The notes beneath the pieces were generated by a model that ran no database searches, was not told the DNA's origin, and saw only the letters and a program-made list of their open reading frames with translations. The translations under genes were made by a program, and so were the position numbers. From Thermoproteota archaeon (GTDB taxonomy: Archaea > Asgardarchaeota > Jordiarchaeia > Jordiarchaeales > Freyrarchaeaceae), in NCBI GenBank assembly GCA_029258835.1, contig JAPDJY010000037.1, positions 1 through 62,400 on the forward strand: DNA of 62,400 nucleotides. Reading direction: 5' to 3'. The number at the start of each line of letters is the position of its first letter. Within the stretch, counting starts at the first letter, position 1. Below, piece by piece: positions 53,990 through 62,400 of this stretch.

Positions 53990-55402
53990 TTACCCCTCCG
54001 AGCCAAGCTGAAACTCTGAGTGGATCGCCCTAACAGCATCCCTTAGATCTTTCCTAGAAACGACAAGTGTTATGTTAAGCTCACTGCTTCCTTGGGCTAT
54101 TGCCCTTATGTTTATACTCTTCCTTCCAAGAGCCGAACATACTCTAGCAGCTATCCCGGGAGTGTTCTTCATTCCCGCCCCTATGACGCTCAGCAACCCT
54201 ACATCGTCTTCAACGTTCACTTTGATCCAGTGGCTTCCGAAGAAGTCGGATCTTTTTATTGCCTCAACAGCTTTCTCCTTGTCAGCCGAATCTATAACTA
54301 GAGTTATATTGTTCTCCGAGGACGATTGAGATATCATCCTAATGTTAACATTTTCTTCCCCCATTAACGTGAAAAGTTTAGCTGCAGTTCCCGGTCTTGA
54401 AACCATTGCCTCTCCCTCAACGGTTATCATGGTCACCTTCTCTATTCCCGAGACAGCCTTCACCACCTCTGCCCTAGACTCCACTATGCTTGAAATGGTA
54501 GTATACTCTTCAGATTCAGCCTTCCAGAAATTCCTTATTTCAAGCGAGATCCCTTTCCTCTCTGCCGGGATAAGGCAGAGAGGATGGAGGAGTTTAGCCC
54601 CAAAAAAGGCTAACTCCTTCGCTTCAGCGTAGGAAATCGTCTTAATTAACCTGCAGTTCTCCTCGTACTCCGGGTTAGCTGTAAGCAATCCGTCAACGTC
54701 CTTCCACAGGATCACTTTGACATCGCTTCTGTCATCCTTCAAGCCATAAGCAAGTATTGTTGCGGTGAAGTCGCTTCCGCCTCTGCCAAGTACGGCCGGT
54801 GTCCCGTCAACGTTCTTACATATAAATCCCGGAACTATAGGGATTACCCCTCTTTCAAGGAGTGGAACAATTTTCTCCTTAACGTTCGCCGCTGTCTCCT
54901 CTAAAAGAGGAAGGGCGTTAAGGTAATTGTTGAACGCTAATATCACTTCCTCAGCATCAACCCTCTTAACGTTAAGTCCCTCATCCCTTAAAAACCCTTC
55001 AAGGATAACGCTCGAAAACTTTTCCCCAAACCCCTCTATGAACGCAAGAATGGACTGCTTTAATCCTTCCCTTTCAACCTTACCTAGTGCCCCCCTAAGG
55101 TCCTCACATAGCCTTTCTACGCTCTCCATAACGTTTCTCATAATGTCTCCGTCCCTTATGGCTTCACCCGCTACTTTCAAGTGCTTTCTTAGGATTTCGT
55201 CGACGCCAGGCTTGACGTCTTCCCTCCTACTTGTTTTATCAGCCGCCTTAATAAGCTGGTCTGTAACACCTGATAGTGCGGAAGGAACCAATACGATCTG
55301 GTGTCCACCGTACTCCTTAACTATGTCGGAAACCCTCCTGAACGACTCGGAATTCCTCAAGCAGCTACCGCCAAACTTCATGACAACCCTGCTAACCCTC
55401 AT
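53990..55402 (-). CDS. lysC: Aspartate kinase
   Basis: MKFGGS, LGRGGSDFTA, DVDG, two ACT domains (SQSSSE, AQGSSE). Confidence 0.94.
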   Translation of the reverse strand: MRVSRVVMKFGGSCLRNSESFRRVSDIVKEYGGHQIVLVPSALSGVTDQLIKAADKTSRREDVKPGVDEILRKHLKVAGEAIRDGDIMRNVMESVERLCEDLRGALGKVEREGLKQSILAFIEGFGEKFSSVILEGFLRDEGLNVKRVDAEEVILAFNNYLNALPLLEETAANVKEKIVPLLERGVIPIVPGFICKNVDGTPAVLGRGGSDFTATILAYGLKDDRSDVKVILWKDVDGLLTANPEYEENCRLIKTISYAEAKELAFFGAKLLHPLCLIPAERKGISLEIRNFWKAESEEYTTISSIVESRAEVVKAVSGIEKVTMITVEGEAMVSRPGTAAKLFTLMGEENVNIRMISQSSSENNITLVIDSADKEKAVEAIKRSDFFGSHWIKVNVEDDVGLLSVIGAGMKNTPGIAARVCSALGRKSINIRAIAQGSSELNITLVVSRKDLRDAVRAIHSEFQLGSEG

Positions 55403-55447
55403 TTTTAACCCCACCTCTACTGAGGCAAGCAAGTAAAAATATAAAGC

Positions 55448-55918
55448 TTGCGAAAACCCCGTAAAACGTCGCAAACAAAAACTAATAAGCCAGTTCAAGT
55501 AAAGAAGGTCAGGCAACCAATTACTCCATTAAAGGTCAAGGAGGCCGACGAAATTCCCGCGGGTTTGCTCGTGATCAGCTGGGGTAAAAAGCTGGGTGCT
55601 TACTTAGAGGCTTCCTTCCCTGCAAAGCTAAATGTTCCGCCAGGCTTCATAACCCAGATTTTCTCAGCTCACTTCCAGGGAGACTTAAACACGTATACGC
55701 CTCGGGTTGCCTTTCAAGCATCAGGAAGAAAAGTGGTGAGCTACCTTGTTGATCAAGGTGGCGTTAAAAAATGCTTCGCCCTTCTCCTTCACAAGGAGGA
55801 GAAGTCAAGTGACTGGTTTGATACTCTCCGAAAAATAGCACTAGAATTCATGAAGGCTAGGAATCCCAAGAAGTTGCCTTCAATCTATAAGAAATATGTG
55901 CTGAAAGGAGGAGGCTAA
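55448..55918 (+). CDS. Stand-alone uDENN/longin-like protein (paralogue of the 48048 N-domain)
   Basis: GLLVISWGKKLGAYLEASFP...QIFSAH...FALLL aligns with GMIVVRWDNRLGAVLEARYP...KIYTAH...VALLL. Confidence 0.6.
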   Translation: MRKPRKTSQTKTNKPVQVKKVRQPITPLKVKEADEIPAGLLVISWGKKLGAYLEASFPAKLNVPPGFITQIFSAHFQGDLNTYTPRVAFQASGRKVVSYLVDQGGVKKCFALLLHKEEKSSDWFDTLRKIALEFMKARNPKKLPSIYKKYVLKGGG

Positions 55919-56637
55919 GCCGTGAACTCAACCTCATTAGAGAACGTTTCCCCATCCACATAAAGAGTACGTTTAACCCTTCCCCGTCTCTTTGACCGTA
56001 ACCTTACTTCCCTTGCTGAAAGCCTCTCCCTGTCCTCAGGGAAAATTATCTCTTCTACTATAAACTTGTTCTCTAAGAGCAATGATTTAAATGGCAACCT
56101 GATCTCCTTTAGGAAATCTGGGGCGACTTCCTCAACGATCCTCTTAACACCCTCCTCACTTAGTTTAAGCCTGCCAACGCAGAACTCCCTTCTTTCCTCC
56201 TCAAACCCTTTATATTCTAACTTCCTTTTTGAACGCACACTCCCCTGCCTCGTTTTAATGTTCAACATTAAGACGCATTCGTCCGCATACCTCTCATAGA
56301 TCTCTCTTAACTCGCCAACCCTGCAGGAAAACTCGACATTAATCTTATGCACCTCTCCTTTTACGCTAACCTTCCCCCCATACTTCCTCGTCTCCTCGAC
56401 ACAAGCCTTACCTATAATAACGCCCTTAACATCACATTCCTCGTTTTCATCAACCGTAGTCAAAAGAAACCATCCGATGAAATCCTCATAGCCTACATCT
56501 CCTTTCAAAACCACATTTCTACCTCGAACCGAAACCTCCAACCAAGGGCCGTCGAACTCTCCGACAGAATATTTAACAAACCTCCTATGAACCCCCTCAT
56601 CTATGTTTCCGTTGACGACGCGGGTTAACCAGTGCAC
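55915..56637 (-). CDS. Conserved archaeal hypothetical protein
   Basis: 240-aa ORF with SD; VHRRFVKYSVGEF, SKRRGRVKR. Confidence 0.6.
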   Translation of the reverse strand: MHWLTRVVNGNIDEGVHRRFVKYSVGEFDGPWLEVSVRGRNVVLKGDVGYEDFIGWFLLTTVDENEECDVKGVIIGKACVEETRKYGGKVSVKGEVHKINVEFSCRVGELREIYERYADECVLMLNIKTRQGSVRSKRKLEYKGFEEERREFCVGRLKLSEEGVKRIVEEVAPDFLKEIRLPFKSLLLENKFIVEEIIFPEDRERLSAREVRLRSKRRGRVKRTLYVDGETFSNEVEFTA

Positions 56638-56858
56638 ACGAACCCCTCCGAAACAAAATTTGAGTTCATTTTTTAACTTTATTCCTTAGCGGTCTTTACA
56701 CGTTTCCAATTTGCGTTTGCTTTTCATTACCTCTCTTCAGTACACTTACATTTAGCTTATTAGCGAAAGTACACAATTAAACAGAAGATTTTAATGTTAT
56801 GTAGCATCTTAAAAAGGTAAGAAGCAGTTTTGAAAGTAAAGAGGAGGTTTAATGTTAG

Positions 56859-57581
56859 ATGGCGGCTAGGAAATATCATCTCCTGTTTGGCGTCATAGTT
56901 TTTGTGATCTTCACGGCTGCATATTATAAGTGGTATCTGGGGACTTGGACGTTAACGGTGTTTGCCGGGATGATCATACCAACTGTGAACACGTTCTCCT
57001 CAAAGGACATAGTATGGTTAACCATAGCCTTCTTCCTATGCCTGACGGGTGCTGAAATAGCGGATTTCGACCATGCAATAACGTGGATGCACCATAGAGA
57101 CTTTCTCACGCATTCAGCTATAATCCCCGCGATCCCCGCTATAGTGGTTTTAGCTGCAAGCTTCACACCAACATTCCTTCAAGAAGTGCGTCTAGCATCA
57201 GCTCTCCTCCTAGCAGTAATACCTTTTATCTTCGCAGCGGCGTCACACCTCCTCATAGACGTATTTCCAAGCGTCCCAATTGAAGAGCTAAGTAAGGAGG
57301 GAAAATACGTGGAGCTTGCGGTCAGAATGGCTGACAGCGCTATTAGAGGAATGATTCTAAGTGAATTCTCAAAACGCCTGTCGGGAAGCTACCTGATCCA
57401 TTTCTGGTGGAGCATAAAAACAGATAAAAGGGAAAGGCACACCCTACCTGAGGGGAAAACAAAAACATGGCTTGTTATCAACGGCCTCATACTAATCGGC
57501 ATCGCACTAGCTCTCCTTGCCAGGTACCTAATGCTCGAGTCAACAGCCATACTAACTCAGCTAACCCCTCTTTTCCTGTAA
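56859..57581 (+). CDS. Membrane-bound metal-dependent hydrolase-like protein (YdjM-like)
   Basis: H...DFDH...HRDFLTHS...SHLLID with TM helices. Confidence 0.65.
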   Translation: MAARKYHLLFGVIVFVIFTAAYYKWYLGTWTLTVFAGMIIPTVNTFSSKDIVWLTIAFFLCLTGAEIADFDHAITWMHHRDFLTHSAIIPAIPAIVVLAASFTPTFLQEVRLASALLLAVIPFIFAAASHLLIDVFPSVPIEELSKEGKYVELAVRMADSAIRGMILSEFSKRLSGSYLIHFWWSIKTDKRERHTLPEGKTKTWLVINGLILIGIALALLARYLMLESTAILTQLTPLFL

Positions 57582-57604
57582 CCATTCCTACTCATTCCAA
57601 CTCC

Positions 57605-57810
57605 AGCAGAAGGGGAAACCTTAAGGTGGAGGGGCCTATGGCTTGAACCAATAAAAAACAGCTTCCACCCCACAATTTCCACATAAACTCTATTCTAGGC
57701 CGTTCCCCACTCAGGCAGAGTTTAGTAGCTCAAAGGGATGGCTTCCCCTCAAACTCCTAACCCCATTTAACCCCCTTTTAGGAGTTCTTCATCCCAATCC
57801 ATCTTCAAGT
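57605..57810. ncRNA. Candidate structured non-coding RNA
   Basis: Nested stems GGGGAAACC/GGCTTCCCC, GGTGGAGG/CTTCCACC, TAAACTCT/AGAGTTTA and adjacent AACTCCTAA/TTAGGAGTT in an intergenic gap. Confidence 0.35.
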
Positions 57811-57848
57811 CTTTTACATAGAAAACTAAAGTTTTTAGGAGCTAACCT

Positions 57849-58598
57849 TCAAAAGATGTCGAAAAGTCCGGGTGTGGGCAGCTCCCCCACTATTATTTTT
57901 CCTTCAGATCCGTCGACCAGCACCTTATACCTTTTACGTTTGTACGTGTAGGTTACGTCCCATATTGGAGCGTGGAGGTAGTATGTGTCCTTAATTGTAA
58001 AATCTGTTTCATGCTCGATTATTTTGTCGACTTCCCTCCTTGCAAGATATAAGTGGTGTTCCACCACCTCACTTTTCGCCCTTTCTACCGCCTCTTCCTC
58101 ACCGAACTCTGCATTGAGGACCCTAGCGTACTCCGGAATTTTCGTGAAGTCGTAGGGTATTTTTCCTTGAAGTGGGACATCATACTCCCTTGTTGGAAAC
58201 TTTGAGGCCCTCTGCGCTATTATAACCCAGTCGTAACTCCCACTTACGGTGCCCTTCCTCACGTATCCCGGTCCCAAACGCTCGAAAATACCCTTAAACC
58301 TCGTAGTTGCCTCTATAGGAACCACCCAGAAAGGATAAATGAACAATACAGCATCCCTAATTTTAGCACGTTTGGAAAGCAGCTTAGGAGCTAGGAAGCT
58401 TGAATCCATCCATTCCCTAACTATCTCGGCAACATCACCCTTCTCAACATTAACTGGGAGAAGCGCGTGCTCCAGCGTGAAAGGCTTCTCGTACGTCAGA
58501 ATAGTCGTGTATCCACAGTATTTACATGTAGCAACATAATCTCCAGCATTGTAATCAAGTGGCGCCCCACAATGCTCACACTTAATTACAATTTTCAA
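57849..58598 (-). CDS. Zinc-ribbon protein of SPFH-associated loci
   Basis: CEHCGAPL..CKYCG, YPFW, C-terminal VDGSEGKIIVG. Confidence 0.75.
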   Translation of the reverse strand: MKIVIKCEHCGAPLDYNAGDYVATCKYCGYTTILTYEKPFTLEHALLPVNVEKGDVAEIVREWMDSSFLAPKLLSKRAKIRDAVLFIYPFWVVPIEATTRFKGIFERLGPGYVRKGTVSGSYDWVIIAQRASKFPTREYDVPLQGKIPYDFTKIPEYARVLNAEFGEEEAVERAKSEVVEHHLYLARREVDKIIEHETDFTIKDTYYLHAPIWDVTYTYKRKRYKVLVDGSEGKIIVGELPTPGLFDIF

Positions 58599-58709
58599 AA
58601 TTTACACCTCACCAAGGAGTACCAGTGTGCTATTCTTTTACTAAAAACTTAATACCCACGTTGACTCTAAATTACTTTCTGGAATTTATAGTGTATAGTG
58701 TAGAATGGT

Positions 58710-60041
58710 TTGAAGGATGATCTGGAAAGGAGGCCGTCATTAATGGGGCATTTAGTGTTCCTTAAGGCGCGGATGGCGACGGCTCTCTTAGCAATGTCCG
58801 CTTTAACCTTCATCTTTCTCGTGGGAGTAAACGTGGCGTTCAGAGCTGTTTTCGGCTCCGCGCTGCTAGACCTTATTTTTAATGCAGGAAATTATATCGG
58901 AGAAATGGTCGGGGAGATAACCGGGAAATTTACTTTTGGAAGCGGGTTAAGTTTAAATGCTCTCCTTCCGCTGCAGGAAAACTGGGATTTCACACATCTC
59001 CAACAGGACCTCCAAGACATTTACTGGGCGATAAACACGCTCATTAACGAGGTTACGCAAGGTGTTCAATGGAATCTAGCGGCTACATCATGGCTTGAGC
59101 CATATACCTTAGGCGGGCTCGCGTTTCTTACAGGCATGTTCATGCTCTTCGAGTGGTTTATTGGCCCCTCCGTAGCTGCCAAGTCCCTCAGCTTAAAATA
59201 CGTAGCAAGCGAGGAAGCGCCATGGCTCCACTCCGTTGTGGAGGAGTTGTCGAGGAAAAGCGGTATTCCAAAACCCAAGATTGCTGTAGCACCGTATCCC
59301 GTTCCTAACGCATGTGTTTTTGGAAGGACGATAAGGGGGGCAACCCTAGCGGTCACCGAGGGATTACTTGAAAACCTTAACGCAGACGAGGTTAAAGCAG
59401 TCATATCCCATGAGCTCGGCCACCTAAGACATAAAGACTGCATAGTACTAACACTGTTAAATGCGATTCCAACATTGTGCTTCATAATAGCAACCTTCAC
59501 CATGTCAGGTTTAAGGTTAAGCTACAGGCCATACAGTAAAAGATCCGGTGGGATATTAGCCATCATACTATTCGTCATCGGGCTAATAGCCATGGCTACG
59601 TACATTGTGACGCTCTTGGTCGTGAGGTACTTAAGCAGGATGCGTGAATTCTACGCAGATGTCTACGCAGCATACCTTACCCACCCATCTTACATGAAAA
59701 GCGCCTTGGCAAAAATTGCCTACGGCCTCTCCACGCGTCCCATGGAAGTCCACGGGGCACGGGCATTTTTCGTTGAAGACCCTGCCACGGCATCAAAAGA
59801 AATAGGAGAAATAATAAGTAAAATGGACGAATACGACCTCAACAAAGACGGAGTCCTAGACGAAAAAGAACTTCAGCTAGCCATGGAGAAAGAAGCAGAG
59901 AAAGTTAGTAGATGGAATAAGTTCAACATGCTTTTCTCAACACATCCACCAACATTCAAAAGGATACTCCTCCTCTCACTGATAGAAAAAGAGCTTAGGC
60001 TAGGACGTTTCACCAAAGAAAACATTTACAAATACATCTAA
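58710..60041 (+). CDS. htpX: HtpX-like M48 zinc metalloprotease with EF-hand
   Basis: PNA, HELGH, SRMREFYAD, STHP; EF-hand loop DLNKDGVLDEKE. Confidence 0.92.
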   Translation: MKDDLERRPSLMGHLVFLKARMATALLAMSALTFIFLVGVNVAFRAVFGSALLDLIFNAGNYIGEMVGEITGKFTFGSGLSLNALLPLQENWDFTHLQQDLQDIYWAINTLINEVTQGVQWNLAATSWLEPYTLGGLAFLTGMFMLFEWFIGPSVAAKSLSLKYVASEEAPWLHSVVEELSRKSGIPKPKIAVAPYPVPNACVFGRTIRGATLAVTEGLLENLNADEVKAVISHELGHLRHKDCIVLTLLNAIPTLCFIIATFTMSGLRLSYRPYSKRSGGILAIILFVIGLIAMATYIVTLLVVRYLSRMREFYADVYAAYLTHPSYMKSALAKIAYGLSTRPMEVHGARAFFVEDPATASKEIGEIISKMDEYDLNKDGVLDEKELQLAMEKEAEKVSRWNKFNMLFSTHPPTFKRILLLSLIEKELRLGRFTKENIYKYI

Positions 60042-60282
60042 AAATTAAAAGTCCACACGAAGCAATCACCCTACGTAAAACATTCGCCTAACTTTTTTAA
60101 CAGGATCCTTAAAGTCCTCGCTCTTTGAACACACATCTCCCAAGATGCTTTTAGCCACCTTCACACCCCCTTCTAAGCACGCAATCCCCCTCAAACATGA
60201 AAACTAAAGCAGATAAAAGAAAGAGTACCTCTAGAAAGGAGGGAAAGTGTCCGTCACCCGCCCTCCTTATCTCCGGATTTTT

Positions 60283-61260
60283 TCACGTAAGCTTGGCTCC
60301 GCAGTTAGGGCAGAACCTAGCATTGAATGGAACTGACGATCCACACTGAGGACAGAATCTTCCGCTTTTTGCTATTCTTTGCCCACAGTTACTGCAGAAC
60401 TTTGCGTTCTGAGAGTTTTGCGCTCCACAGTTAGGACAGATAACAAAGTTTTGAGGTTGAGGCTGCTGTAGGAGCGGTGGGAGGATAGCCACCCCAGCCC
60501 CAAAGGCTGCTCCGGAAGACCGCCCAAGAGCCTCCGCGCTTCTCTCAACGGCCTCCAACGTCCTCGCCCTCTCGCCCTCAACTTGGCCTGTTTGCAGCCA
60601 GAAGAGCCTCTCCCTGTACTCCGGTGTAGTATCCATTCCCTCAAACCTTAAGTCTATAAGGTCTATGCCAAGCCTCCTGAACTGCTCCCTAATTTTAACT
60701 TTAACCTTCATGCTCGTTTCATCCAGCTGAGTAAAAACATCCTGCAACCTAAATGCTGCAAGACTATCTATCACGTTCTCCAGTATGAACCCCCTAACGA
60801 ACTGGTTTACCGCATCGGTGGTGAACGCACTAGCATTACCAACAACTTCAACAACGAAAAGCTTTGGTTCCTCAACCTTAAACCAGAACGTACCATGAAA
60901 CTTTAACGGAGCCAAGTCCCTCGTCTGTCCCTGCCCTCCAAACCTCCCTTGAAACTGAGATGTTGAGACAAAAATAACCTCAGCTGCGAAAGCAGACTTA
61001 TCAAGCATTTGAAGCTTCTGTATAACCTTAGATATCAGTGGAAGATTAGCCGTCGTAAGTTGATGCCTTCCCGGACCAAGAACATCATATGCCTTCCCGT
61101 CCCTAAAAAAGACCGCCACTTGGTTCTCCCTAACTATCAGGTTTGATCCCCACTCTATCCTATCGTTAGGATACCTCCAAACTACCTCGTCACGACCACC
61201 CTTCCACTCTATAACCTTAGGCAACCTTACACCACTCATTCCTTTTATTCCTTTTTTCAC
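60283..61260 (-). CDS. SPFH-domain protein with double zinc ribbon (YdjI-like)
   Basis: VWRYP, LIVRENQVAVFFRDG, PGRHQLTTANLP; C-terminal CPNCG..FCSNCG..CPQCG..FCPNCG. Confidence 0.9.
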   Translation of the reverse strand: MKKGIKGMSGVRLPKVIEWKGGRDEVVWRYPNDRIEWGSNLIVRENQVAVFFRDGKAYDVLGPGRHQLTTANLPLISKVIQKLQMLDKSAFAAEVIFVSTSQFQGRFGGQGQTRDLAPLKFHGTFWFKVEEPKLFVVEVVGNASAFTTDAVNQFVRGFILENVIDSLAAFRLQDVFTQLDETSMKVKVKIREQFRRLGIDLIDLRFEGMDTTPEYRERLFWLQTGQVEGERARTLEAVERSAEALGRSSGAAFGAGVAILPPLLQQPQPQNFVICPNCGAQNSQNAKFCSNCGQRIAKSGRFCPQCGSSVPFNARFCPNCGAKLT

Positions 61261-61877
61261 TCTTTAATCTTCAACATACAATTCTCTCTATCACTAATTT
61301 TTTTATCGATGTCATCAAGAGTACGCCTCAGCCTGAAGATCTGCTGATAAACATCCTTAAAGTTACCTTGCTCCATTCGTCCCTTAAGACTTAAAACATC
61401 CCTGCGAAACACCTCGACATCCTCAAGAACCCCCGCGTCGAACTCGTAAAGCCTGTCAAGCTCCTCCTCTCTAATCTTCACGGCATCGAAAAACCCGGAG
61501 TACCCGTAATCAGCATGGTTAATCCTCTCCGAAACTCTGTCAAGCAACGCCATAAGCCTATCCATCTGATCCCAACTCTCACGAAGGTCATAGTCAATAA
61601 GCATCTCCTGAACCAAGCTCAAATTTGACCTGCACTCCCTCAACACACCATAAACATAGTTTCTAAGTATTTTATCAGTTTCTCTCCGAACTTCCTTAGC
61701 CTTATACCCGTGTTAGCCAGCCCGGAAAAACCAAGACTTATAGCCAGGTATAAGGCTCATCAACTTCTCCAGCAAATTCCTCTTAGCCTGCTTAGAAACC
61801 TCCTTCCTAATCCTCTCAGCAACATCCTCCTTCTTTCTCCTTCCAAACAACCACAAAAACACCACCCCATACTTCAT
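61257..61877 (-). CDS. Conserved hypothetical protein (SPFH operon leader), split by a putative 27-nt BHB intron: exon1 61877-61740, exon2 61712-61257
   Basis: Spliced product reads LLEKLMSLIPGY-HGYKAKEVRRETDKILR...ADYGYSGFFDAVKIREEELDRLYEFD; unspliced has in-frame TAA; start may be TTG at 61856. Confidence 0.75.
61713..61739 (-). other. Putative bulge-helix-bulge intron in mRNA
   Basis: GGCU-AUA-[AGUCUUGG UUUUU CCGGGCU]-GGCU-AAC; flanking 11-bp exon stem AGCCTTATACC/GGTATAAGGCT. Confidence 0.72.
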
Positions 61878-61930
61878 TCAAAACTATAACAGCAAAAAAC
61901 ACTTGAACTTATTAAGTGAAAAATGAGGAT

Positions 61931-61945
61931 AAAAAATTTATATCT
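61931..61945 (+). promoter_or_regulatory. BRE/TATA promoter of tRNA-Val
   Basis: AAAAAATTTATAT about 30 nt upstream of the tRNA. Confidence 0.6.
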
Positions 61946-61971
61946 GCGGCAAAAATCTAAACCCTGAGTGC

Positions 61972-62060
61972 GGGCGGGTAGTCTAGCGGTTATGACGCCA
62001 CACAATAGGGCGAAGCTTACGACGTGGAGGTCCCAGGTTCAAATCCTGGCCCGCCCACCA
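61972..62060 (+). tRNA. tRNA-Val(TAC) with 13-nt non-canonical BHB intron (62002-62014, position 30/31), CCA encoded
   Basis: Acceptor GGGCGGG/CCCGCCC, T-arm CCAGG-TTCAAAT-CCTGG; BHB CGCC-ACA...GGCG-AAG; spliced anticodon arm CCACG-CTTACGA-CGTGG. Confidence 0.92.
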
Positions 62061-62127
62061 ACCTCCTATTTTATCTTTCATTGAAGAAATTATTCTCTAA
62101 TAAATAATTAAGAAATTACTTGGTTTT

Positions 62128-62400
62128 TTACGCCTCGCTGAAAAGCTTTTTCAACCTATTCAACTCAGCTAACATAGCATTCCTTAACTCAGTAATAGAT
62201 GCAGCCTCAGATCTAGTTGTAACAGGTGCAACAGACGGCACACCAGTTGTCGGCGCTGCCGCTGGTGCTGCTGGTGGTGCTGATGGTGGGGCCTTTGGGG
62301 GTGCCGCTGGAGGTGCTTTTGGGGGTGCTGCTGGTGGGGCTGCTGGTGGGGCTGCTGGTGGGGCTGCTGGTGGGGCTGATGGTGGGGCCTTTGGGGGTGC
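62128..62400 (-). CDS. C-terminus of a Pro/Ala-rich protein ending in an amphipathic helix with LKK (5' part outside window)
   Basis: Manual translation (APPx)n...SITELRNAMLAELNRLKKLFSEA*; open for 91 codons. Confidence 0.8.
   Translation of the reverse strand, partial: APPKAPPSAPPAAPPAAPPAAPPAAPPKAPPAAPPKAPPSAPPAAPAAAPTTGVPSVAPVTTRSEAASITELRNAMLAELNRLKKLFSEA
62268..62400 (-). repeat. Coding tandem repeat, 12-bp unit (APPA/APPK/APPS)
   Basis: About 11 copies of a GCNCCNCCA-NNN unit, e.g. GGTGGGGCTGCT on the + strand. Confidence 0.9.

Follow-up and report, generated by a model that had tools for sequence, protein, structure and literature searches.

A bulge-helix-bulge (BHB) intron reportedly occurs in the cbf5 pre-mRNA of Crenarchaeota, after work by Watanabe in 2002 and Yoshinari in 2006. 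In the eukaryotic unfolded protein response (UPR), the HAC1/XBP1 mRNA carries a short non-spliceosomal intron, for which the stress sensor IRE1 cuts stem-loops and RtcB joins the exons in animals, the splicing being induced by stress and altering the reading frame of a transcription factor. As stated in a passage of PMC7714728, cbf5 was in 2020 the sole other reported BHB intron beside a case in the 5′ untranslated region (5′ UTR) in Haloferax, and a passage of a 2023 review (PMC10485636) expected further such introns. The passages found of a 2026 preprint on Asgard tRNA introns hold no protein-coding intron, and our literature search, with subscription journals largely outside it, turned up coding-sequence BHB introns for crenarchaeal cbf5 only, no paper on a protein-coding BHB intron in Asgard archaea and no paper joining cbf5, Asgard and intron. 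Here we analysed a DNA stretch of 62,400 nucleotides (nt), hereafter the window, from an Asgard archaeon of the Jordarchaeia (GCA_029258835.1, contig JAPDJY010000037.1), in which a gene on the minus strand, designated geneA, is interrupted by 27 nt. Judging from the comparison of sequences, this insert is very probably a real tRNA-type intron, and it is likely that geneA carries a genuine archaeal BHB intron that is spliced constitutively by the tRNA-splicing endonuclease and RtcB. The parts of geneA and of the predicted splicing motif are as follows.

61740..61877, minus strand: exon 1 of geneA, from ATG 61877 to ...IPGY
61713..61739, minus strand: predicted intron of geneA, 27 nt, BHB type, AAGUCUUGGUUUUUCCGGGCUGGCUAA, with an in-frame TAA as its final three bases
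61257..61712, minus strand: exon 2 of geneA, HGYKAKEVRRETDK... to TGA 61259..61257
61698..61757, minus strand: whole predicted splicing motif, its outer exon-exon helix formed by 61757..61745 / 61710..61698
Within this motif (cut sites marked by ↓): central helix of 4 base pairs (bp), GGCU/GGCU; 5′ bulge AU↓A; inner helix AGUCU/GGGCU; 3′ bulge AA↓C
61929..61943, minus strand: TATA-box-like element ATATAAATTTTTTAT upstream of geneA, read from the sequence, a putative promoter element

The gene extends over 61877..61257 and is interrupted by the insert 61739..61713. The open reading frame (ORF) 61877..61713(-) ends in ...LIPGYKSWFFRAG plus stop (TAA 61715..61713), the same end being ...EKLMSLIPGYKSWFFRAG plus stop, and ORF 61646..61257(-) shares its frame. 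Excision of 61739..61713 yields ...IPGY followed directly by HGYKAKEVRRETDK..., that is, an IPGY-HGYK junction. This junction, put forward in an earlier sequence-only reading of the same DNA, is confirmed by inserts at the same site in relatives and by homologues that are contiguous across it. The read-through translation of geneA was searched against 41 related genomes, 25 of which hold the gene, and exon 1 and exon 2 were placed separately by tblastn, with the intron borders taken from homology alone; the named genome records represent the same species set again and are not independent. At the PGY-HGYK junction, inserts were found in 6 of the 10 Jordarchaeia species genomes that hold geneA. 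The insert measures 27 nt in the genome analysed here, 29, 28 and 28 nt in three further members of its family, and 31 nt in each of two genomes from a neighbouring genus. This agreement at one codon junction goes far past what chance would give. The survey of intron presence and position that the sequence-only reading had proposed thereby gave the same site in each case, and the intron is not confined to a single strain. The insert is absent from four other genomes of the neighbouring genus and, among more distant genomes, from the six that allowed placement of exon 1, and the same-family genome G001 gave no geneA match with the read-through query. Eight of nine close metagenome loci carry the insert (27, 27, 29, 28, 30, 31, 30 and 30 nt) and one is intron-less, and the 27-nt insert recurs letter for letter in two metagenome contigs, L055 and L056, that are independent of one another. 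The complete genome behind L026 carries the form of 31 nt. Most of the lengths are not divisible by three, and inserts of 28, 29 and 31 nt therefore leave the two exons in different frames. None of the 34 aligned archaeal and bacterial homologues is interrupted at IPG[YF]-xGYK, the nine extra residues appearing in the read-through translation only.

A maximum-likelihood tree of the exon-2 and SPFH proteins placed all the intron-bearing sequences in one Jordarchaeia clade (support 99/96). The intron-less copies form a single clade nested within the intron-bearing genus (support 100/100), with the intron-bearing lineages paraphyletic around it, and the interrupted state is found across two families. 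As read from this tree, the simplest history would be one gain in the Jordarchaeia ancestor and one precise loss in a subclade. An exact loss at the predicted borders would be the outcome expected of recombination with a spliced copy.

The RNA around the insert can be drawn as a BHB structure in every case. All of the 11 distinct variants (11/11) have four of four central-helix pairs, two 3-nt bulges, an inner helix directly abutting the central one, and a U-A pair that closes the outer side. The 5′ bulge consists of the last two bases of exon 1 and the first base of the intron (AU↓A, AU↓G or AC↓U), the four bases preceding it pair with intron bases -6 to -3 (GGCU/GGCU, GGCU/GGCC or GGUU/GGCC), and the 3′ bulge consists of the last two bases of the intron and the first base of exon 2 (AA↓C, AG↓C or UG↓C). 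Cutting between the second and third base of a bulge is the rule given for cbf5 introns in PMC2738675, and in all 11 variants the sites so defined equal the exon borders derived from homology. There are two intron types with unrelated inner helices, AGUCU/GGGCU and GAGCAG/CUGCUC, and within the family the first inner pair has undergone a double change from A-U to G-C. The pairing rule held for 2001 of 27,145,870 random position pairs 27-31 nt apart in the genome (7.4e-5). No other copy of the 27-nt intron was found in the genome at up to 6 mismatches. The I-P codons (AUA CC) are the reverse complement of the G-Y codons (GG UAU), giving the exon-exon helix both in the window (61698-61757) and at the intron-less loci L005-L008; the geneA coding sequence was thus prone to forming a BHB outer helix.

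Each exon, read in its own frame, shows purifying selection, with pairwise ratios of nonsynonymous to synonymous substitution rates (dN/dS, omega) of 0.09-0.32 for exon 1 (last 33 codons, intron-bearing genomes) and 0.05-0.09 for exon 2. The invariant residues of the family, G, Y, E, R, D and R, all fall within the first 22 codons of exon 2, which contain no ATG, GTG or TTG before GTG 61646, so that these codons are readable only through exon 1. In public annotations of Jordarchaeales/Freyarchaeota relatives the geneA proteins are cut to 114-131 amino acids (aa), and proteins annotated in this way would miss the invariant residues. As to the start of exon 1, the sequences of relatives make TTG 61850 (MFGRRKK...) more likely to be the true start than the annotated ATG 61877: the geneA proteins of genus-g3 relatives begin with MFGKK, several of them directly after a stop, and a Shine-Dalgarno-like GGGGTTGT precedes that start in relatives, with GGGGTGGTG preceding TTG 61850 in the window. 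Farther upstream, the motif TATAAATTTTTTATCC precedes geneA in two relatives of the family as well, L002 and L003, and L004 has a near copy of it.

Two paralogues of tRNA_int_endo (PF01974; 105.7 and 82 bits, above the cut-off) and one RtcB (PF01139; 606.9 bits) are encoded in the genome, the paralogues in the regions C1:12233-12481 and C6:39796-40056 of G000 and RtcB at C1:78966-80273, and we infer from the sequence comparison that cutting and joining of the geneA intron occur. In the mechanism proposed, the exon sequences flanking the intron would pair in the pre-mRNA both with one another and with the two intron termini, giving two 3-nt bulges that flank a 4-bp helix; the tRNA-splicing endonuclease, for which the two paralogues would fit a heteromeric enzyme of broad specificity, would cut each bulge between its second and third base, and RtcB would ligate the exons. 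Joining would restore the ...IPGY-HGYKAKE.RRE.DK... motif of an all-helical, fixed SPFH (Band_7_1) partner of about 180 aa, and translation of the unspliced message would terminate at the TAA of the intron. According to the intron passages of PMC11291895, this lineage carries introns in 92-95% of its tRNA genes, and the endonuclease and the ligase must therefore work constitutively. The geneA intron is probably a spill-over of this massive load of tRNA introns in Jordarchaeia, gained once in an ancestor and later lost precisely in a subclade.

A second intron of this kind lies in the same genome outside the window. The cbf5 gene is split by a 27-nt canonical BHB intron (L124:1706-1732 = G000 C27:11929-11955, plus strand) with 5′ bulge AG↓A, central helix CACU/GGUG, an inner helix of 8 bp and 3′ bulge AA↓A, inserted after the first base of the catalytic Asp codon, at the site known from Crenarchaeota (PMC2738675). 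Inserts of 26-41 nt at the cbf5 site were detected in 16 of 21 Asgard loci (all 11 Jordarchaeia together with G021, G031, G028, G038 and G033), and the central helix co-varies among them (CACU/GGUG, CUCU/AGAG and CCUU/AAGG). The introns of geneA and of cbf5 (16 Asgard genomes) suggest, at the level of sequence, that intron-rich Asgard classes splice several mRNAs. A genome-wide scan for BHB motifs whose removal merges ORFs gave 629 candidates against 624 for a decoy with shifted pairing, stricter filters being of no help, and a scan with constrained bulges gave 1176 against 1333 for two decoy shifts, the decoys being biased by the fixed AA; these scans are without power, and no genome count of coding introns is therefore possible. 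Close to geneA itself, 95 nt upstream, lies a tRNA gene (61972-62057, plus strand; Rfam tRNA, 53 bits) with 13 extra bases in its anticodon arm. ARAGORN calls it Leu(CAA); we read it as Val(UAC), interrupted by 13 nt of intron between positions 30 and 31, and the bulges of this intron, AC↓A ... AA↓G, resemble those of the mRNA intron.

Several points limit the case for a constitutively spliced BHB intron in geneA. Two metatranscriptome runs match small shares of the window, and none of their contigs lies over the junction, 61688..61831 being uncovered; the contigs fall on stretches of the zinc-ribbon, HtpX and SPFH genes described below, at 95-99% likeness, with DNA carry-over possible, and a DNA contig of run X2 spans the bin with the insert, with no joint reported. 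That the splicing is constitutive we infer by argument. The fold of minimum free energy of the window copy has an outer helix of 13 bp, a 3′ bulge of 5 nt and a central helix of 3 bp, the canonical BHB form being less stable by 4.9 kcal/mol at 37 C (by 2.9-7.1 kcal/mol over all variants); the window copy of the motif is relaxed. The variant L004 is mismatched at the first inner pair. Finally, the AlphaFold model of the intron-less orthologue P0003 is an all-helical bundle (predicted local distance difference test, pLDDT, 79; predicted template modelling score, pTM, 0.69), for which Foldseek against the PDB gave nothing at E <= 0.001 (best E 0.028) and generic helical bundles only.

The gene downstream of geneA, which bears on the question of regulation, is the following.

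60283..61260, minus strand: SPFH (Band_7_1) protein with a C-terminal double zinc ribbon, start at GTG 61260 or ATG 61238

Its protein matches Band_7_1 (PF13421; 9e-29, 101 bits, cut-off 24) and DZR (8e-13, 48.8 bits, cut-off 27.3), and the TGA of geneA (61259..61257) overlaps its GTG 61260. Of 105 archaeal and bacterial loci, 85 have an SPFH gene immediately after geneA in the same orientation and 14 more have one elsewhere in the locus, none being found in the remaining 6; the 105 are the loci with at least 400 nt of room, and the three locus sets from which they come overlap in part. The overlap of stop and start and this recurrence bear out the sequence-only reading that the intron-bearing gene leads an operon with the SPFH/double-zinc-ribbon gene.

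That reading had gone on to propose that splicing gates the locus under stress, a claim that stands unsupported in view of the loss of the intron in a sister clade, the cbf5 intron and the constitutive tRNA-splicing enzymes. Under such regulated splicing, which we consider unlikely, heat or membrane stress would trigger all or most of the intron removal; without it, translation would end at the stop in the intron, and neither full-length geneA protein nor the translationally coupled SPFH protein would be made until stress set in. The overlap of the geneA stop with the SPFH start is in favour of this possibility, in that premature termination 450 nt upstream could lower SPFH translation; in each of the 11 intron variants the frame meets a stop right at the 5′ junction or shortly beyond it, and the two competing registers of the outer helix in the source species could in principle make cutting dependent on conditions. 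However, precise loss of the intron in the sister clade left the operon in place, the housekeeping gene cbf5 of this genome has an intron of the same type, the lineage relies on the same enzymes for nearly all its tRNAs (PMC11291895), and the peptide encoded by the unspliced message shows no conservation from variant to variant. In addition, a search for an IRE1-type RNase (PF06479), the sensor nuclease, gave no match in the 94.7%-complete genome, the search being without positive control among the control genomes. Since the intron-less clade (100/100) retained the same operon, the geneA intron is dispensable. As a conceptual analogy the parallel drawn with the UPR still stands; the motif at the insert is a BHB and as such a substrate of the tRNA-splicing endonuclease. 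There is a small chance that a conditional gate exists, its rate set by competition between helix registers or by ribosome traffic over the site; if true, the closest archaeal relatives of eukaryotes would have, with the endonuclease and RtcB, a prokaryotic mechanism that prefigures the logic of HAC1/XBP1 splicing.

Constitutive splicing has to be weighed also against no splicing at all, in which case geneA would be split or decaying and would give a short N-terminal peptide, a 129-aa product from GTG 61646, or both. We regard this as quite improbable. It agrees with the truncated 114-131-aa proteins annotated in relatives and with the lack of any spliced read in the RNA runs, the contigs of which did not cover the junction; it is at odds with the 22 codons between the intron and the GTG, which hold invariant residues without a start codon, with the purifying selection on exon 1 in its own frame, with the conservation of the BHB fold by compensatory changes (11/11 variants) and with the persistence of the interrupted state across two families. 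Translational recoding is very improbable: the ribosome would read through the TAA, shift frame or hop by use of the repeated GGN-UAY codons, GGC-UAU standing before the insert and GGG-UAU shortly after it, with a hairpin in the gap. Read-through fails for the inserts of 28, 29 and 31 nt, a hop from Tyr to Tyr would delete H-G-Y including the invariant G and Y, and the conserved structure is specifically a BHB with its cut sites at the homology borders. We know of no such translational bypass in archaea. Reading of TAA as a sense codon was considered as well, and is ruled out by the frame-shifting inserts in relatives. An assembly or sequencing artefact has a negligible probability, given the identical 27-nt insert in the independent contigs L055 and L056, the related inserts in five other species genomes and the run X2 DNA contig that covers the insert bin with no joint reported.

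On the far side of the SPFH gene from geneA the window contains the following genes.

58710..60041, plus strand: HtpX-type M48 zinc metalloprotease, convergent with the SPFH gene, with a HELGH motif in the translation
57849..58598, minus strand: 249-aa protein with an N-terminal zinc ribbon, of an uncharacterised family, divergent from HtpX
56859..57581, plus strand: 240-aa membrane protein, a conserved neighbour of SPFH in Jordarchaeia, without a Pfam family

The HtpX-type protein matches Peptidase_M48 (4e-32, 111.9 bits, cut-off 20.3), and it scores under the cut-off of the NCBIfam HtpX equivalogs (for example, 172 against 341 bits). It has an N-terminal extension of about 130 residues and an EF-hand-like calcium loop, DLNKDGVLDEKE (59823-59891, plus strand; Pfam EF-hand_1, E 5e-4, below the cut-off), both unusual for HtpX. 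The 249-aa protein matched no Pfam family at the cut-off, and its atlas clusters are named 'zinc ribbon domain-containing protein', mostly of Bathyarchaeota. The sequence-only reading had counted HtpX and the zinc-ribbon protein as partners in one locus; they are indeed neighbours, but they do not belong to the same operon, as HtpX is on the plus strand and the zinc-ribbon gene is divergent, and the two are separate transcription units outside the geneA-SPFH operon. In distantly related archaea and bacteria, too, the pair of geneA and SPFH is accompanied by a zinc-ribbon protein and in some cases by HtpX. By tblastn, homologues of the 249-aa protein are present in the short flanks of 14 of 119 geneA loci, archaeal and bacterial, and HtpX in 6 of the 119, three of which are the source species; the Bathyarchaeia locus L031 has the order HtpX (divergent; 47% identity), zinc-ribbon gene, geneA, SPFH. 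In the nearest Jordarchaeales relatives, homologues of the 240-aa membrane protein (31-76% identity) follow directly after the SPFH gene in convergent orientation, and the HtpX/zinc-ribbon pair stands between the SPFH and 240-aa genes in the source species only (compared with L022, L028, L057 and L058). This arrangement suggests that the pair may have been brought next to the module by local insertion or rearrangement. By analogy with known SPFH and HtpX biology, the module may have a role in membrane quality control.

The geneA protein itself matched no Pfam family, and atlas look-ups gave unnamed clusters only. Its residues 65-203 match NCBIfam LIMLP_15305 (NF047596) with 50 bits (E 3e-13, cut-off 210), and by this score it is a distant relative of LIMLP_15305 outside the equivalog. 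Rfam applied to 55000..62400 detected the tRNA and one sub-threshold C/D-box match only, the latter (sR52, 58048-58103, minus strand) lying within the zinc-ribbon gene and being probably due to chance (24.6 bits against a gathering threshold of 50, E 0.074). Beyond the tRNA gene an open frame (62128-62400, minus strand) runs off the end of the window and encodes a low-complexity Ala/Pro/Lys repeat, APPAAPPAAPPK...

The present analysis presents geneA as a well-supported coding BHB intron of an Asgard archaeon in a gene unrelated to RNA metabolism, and very probably as one of the rare spliced protein genes of archaea, with a clear history of gain and precise loss. With geneA, Band_7_1 SPFH proteins also gain a conserved partner, so far uncharacterised, which gene callers systematically truncate to 114-131 aa in public records. 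If several mRNAs are spliced in Asgard archaea, this would be relevant to the spread of introns into protein-coding genes close to the eukaryotic root. With HAC1/XBP1, geneA shares a short non-spliceosomal mRNA intron, whereas IRE1 cutting, stress induction and a frame change in a transcription factor are features of the HAC1/XBP1 system.

The systems closest to geneA are archaeal. Like HVO_1309 of Haloferax volcanii, as described in passages of PMC7714728 and PMC10485636, geneA would give the tRNA-splicing endonuclease a substrate that is neither tRNA nor rRNA but mRNA; the HVO_1309 intron lies in the 5′ UTR and is cut in vitro and in vivo, whereas that of geneA lies in the reading frame and has comparative support only. 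The multi-intron tRNA genes of Freyarchaeia/Jordarchaeia and Atabeyarchaeia (PMC11291895) share with geneA the lineage, the kind of motif and presumably the enzymes, but the Freyarchaeia/Atabeyarchaeia introns treated there are those of tRNA, and the intron passages of that paper name no protein-coding gene. In comparison with crenarchaeal cbf5, which encodes an RNA-modification enzyme, geneA encodes an uncharacterised helical SPFH partner and belongs to the Asgard phylum (Jordarchaeia); its splicing is predicted from comparison, and its genome has a cbf5 intron as well. In the remaining features, as given for cbf5 in Yokobori 2009 (PMC2738675), the two systems are alike: each has a short coding intron with a (relaxed) BHB motif, cut sites between the second and third bulge base that match the borders deduced from the protein, a host with more than one endonuclease subunit gene, and one gain followed by precise, lineage-specific loss.

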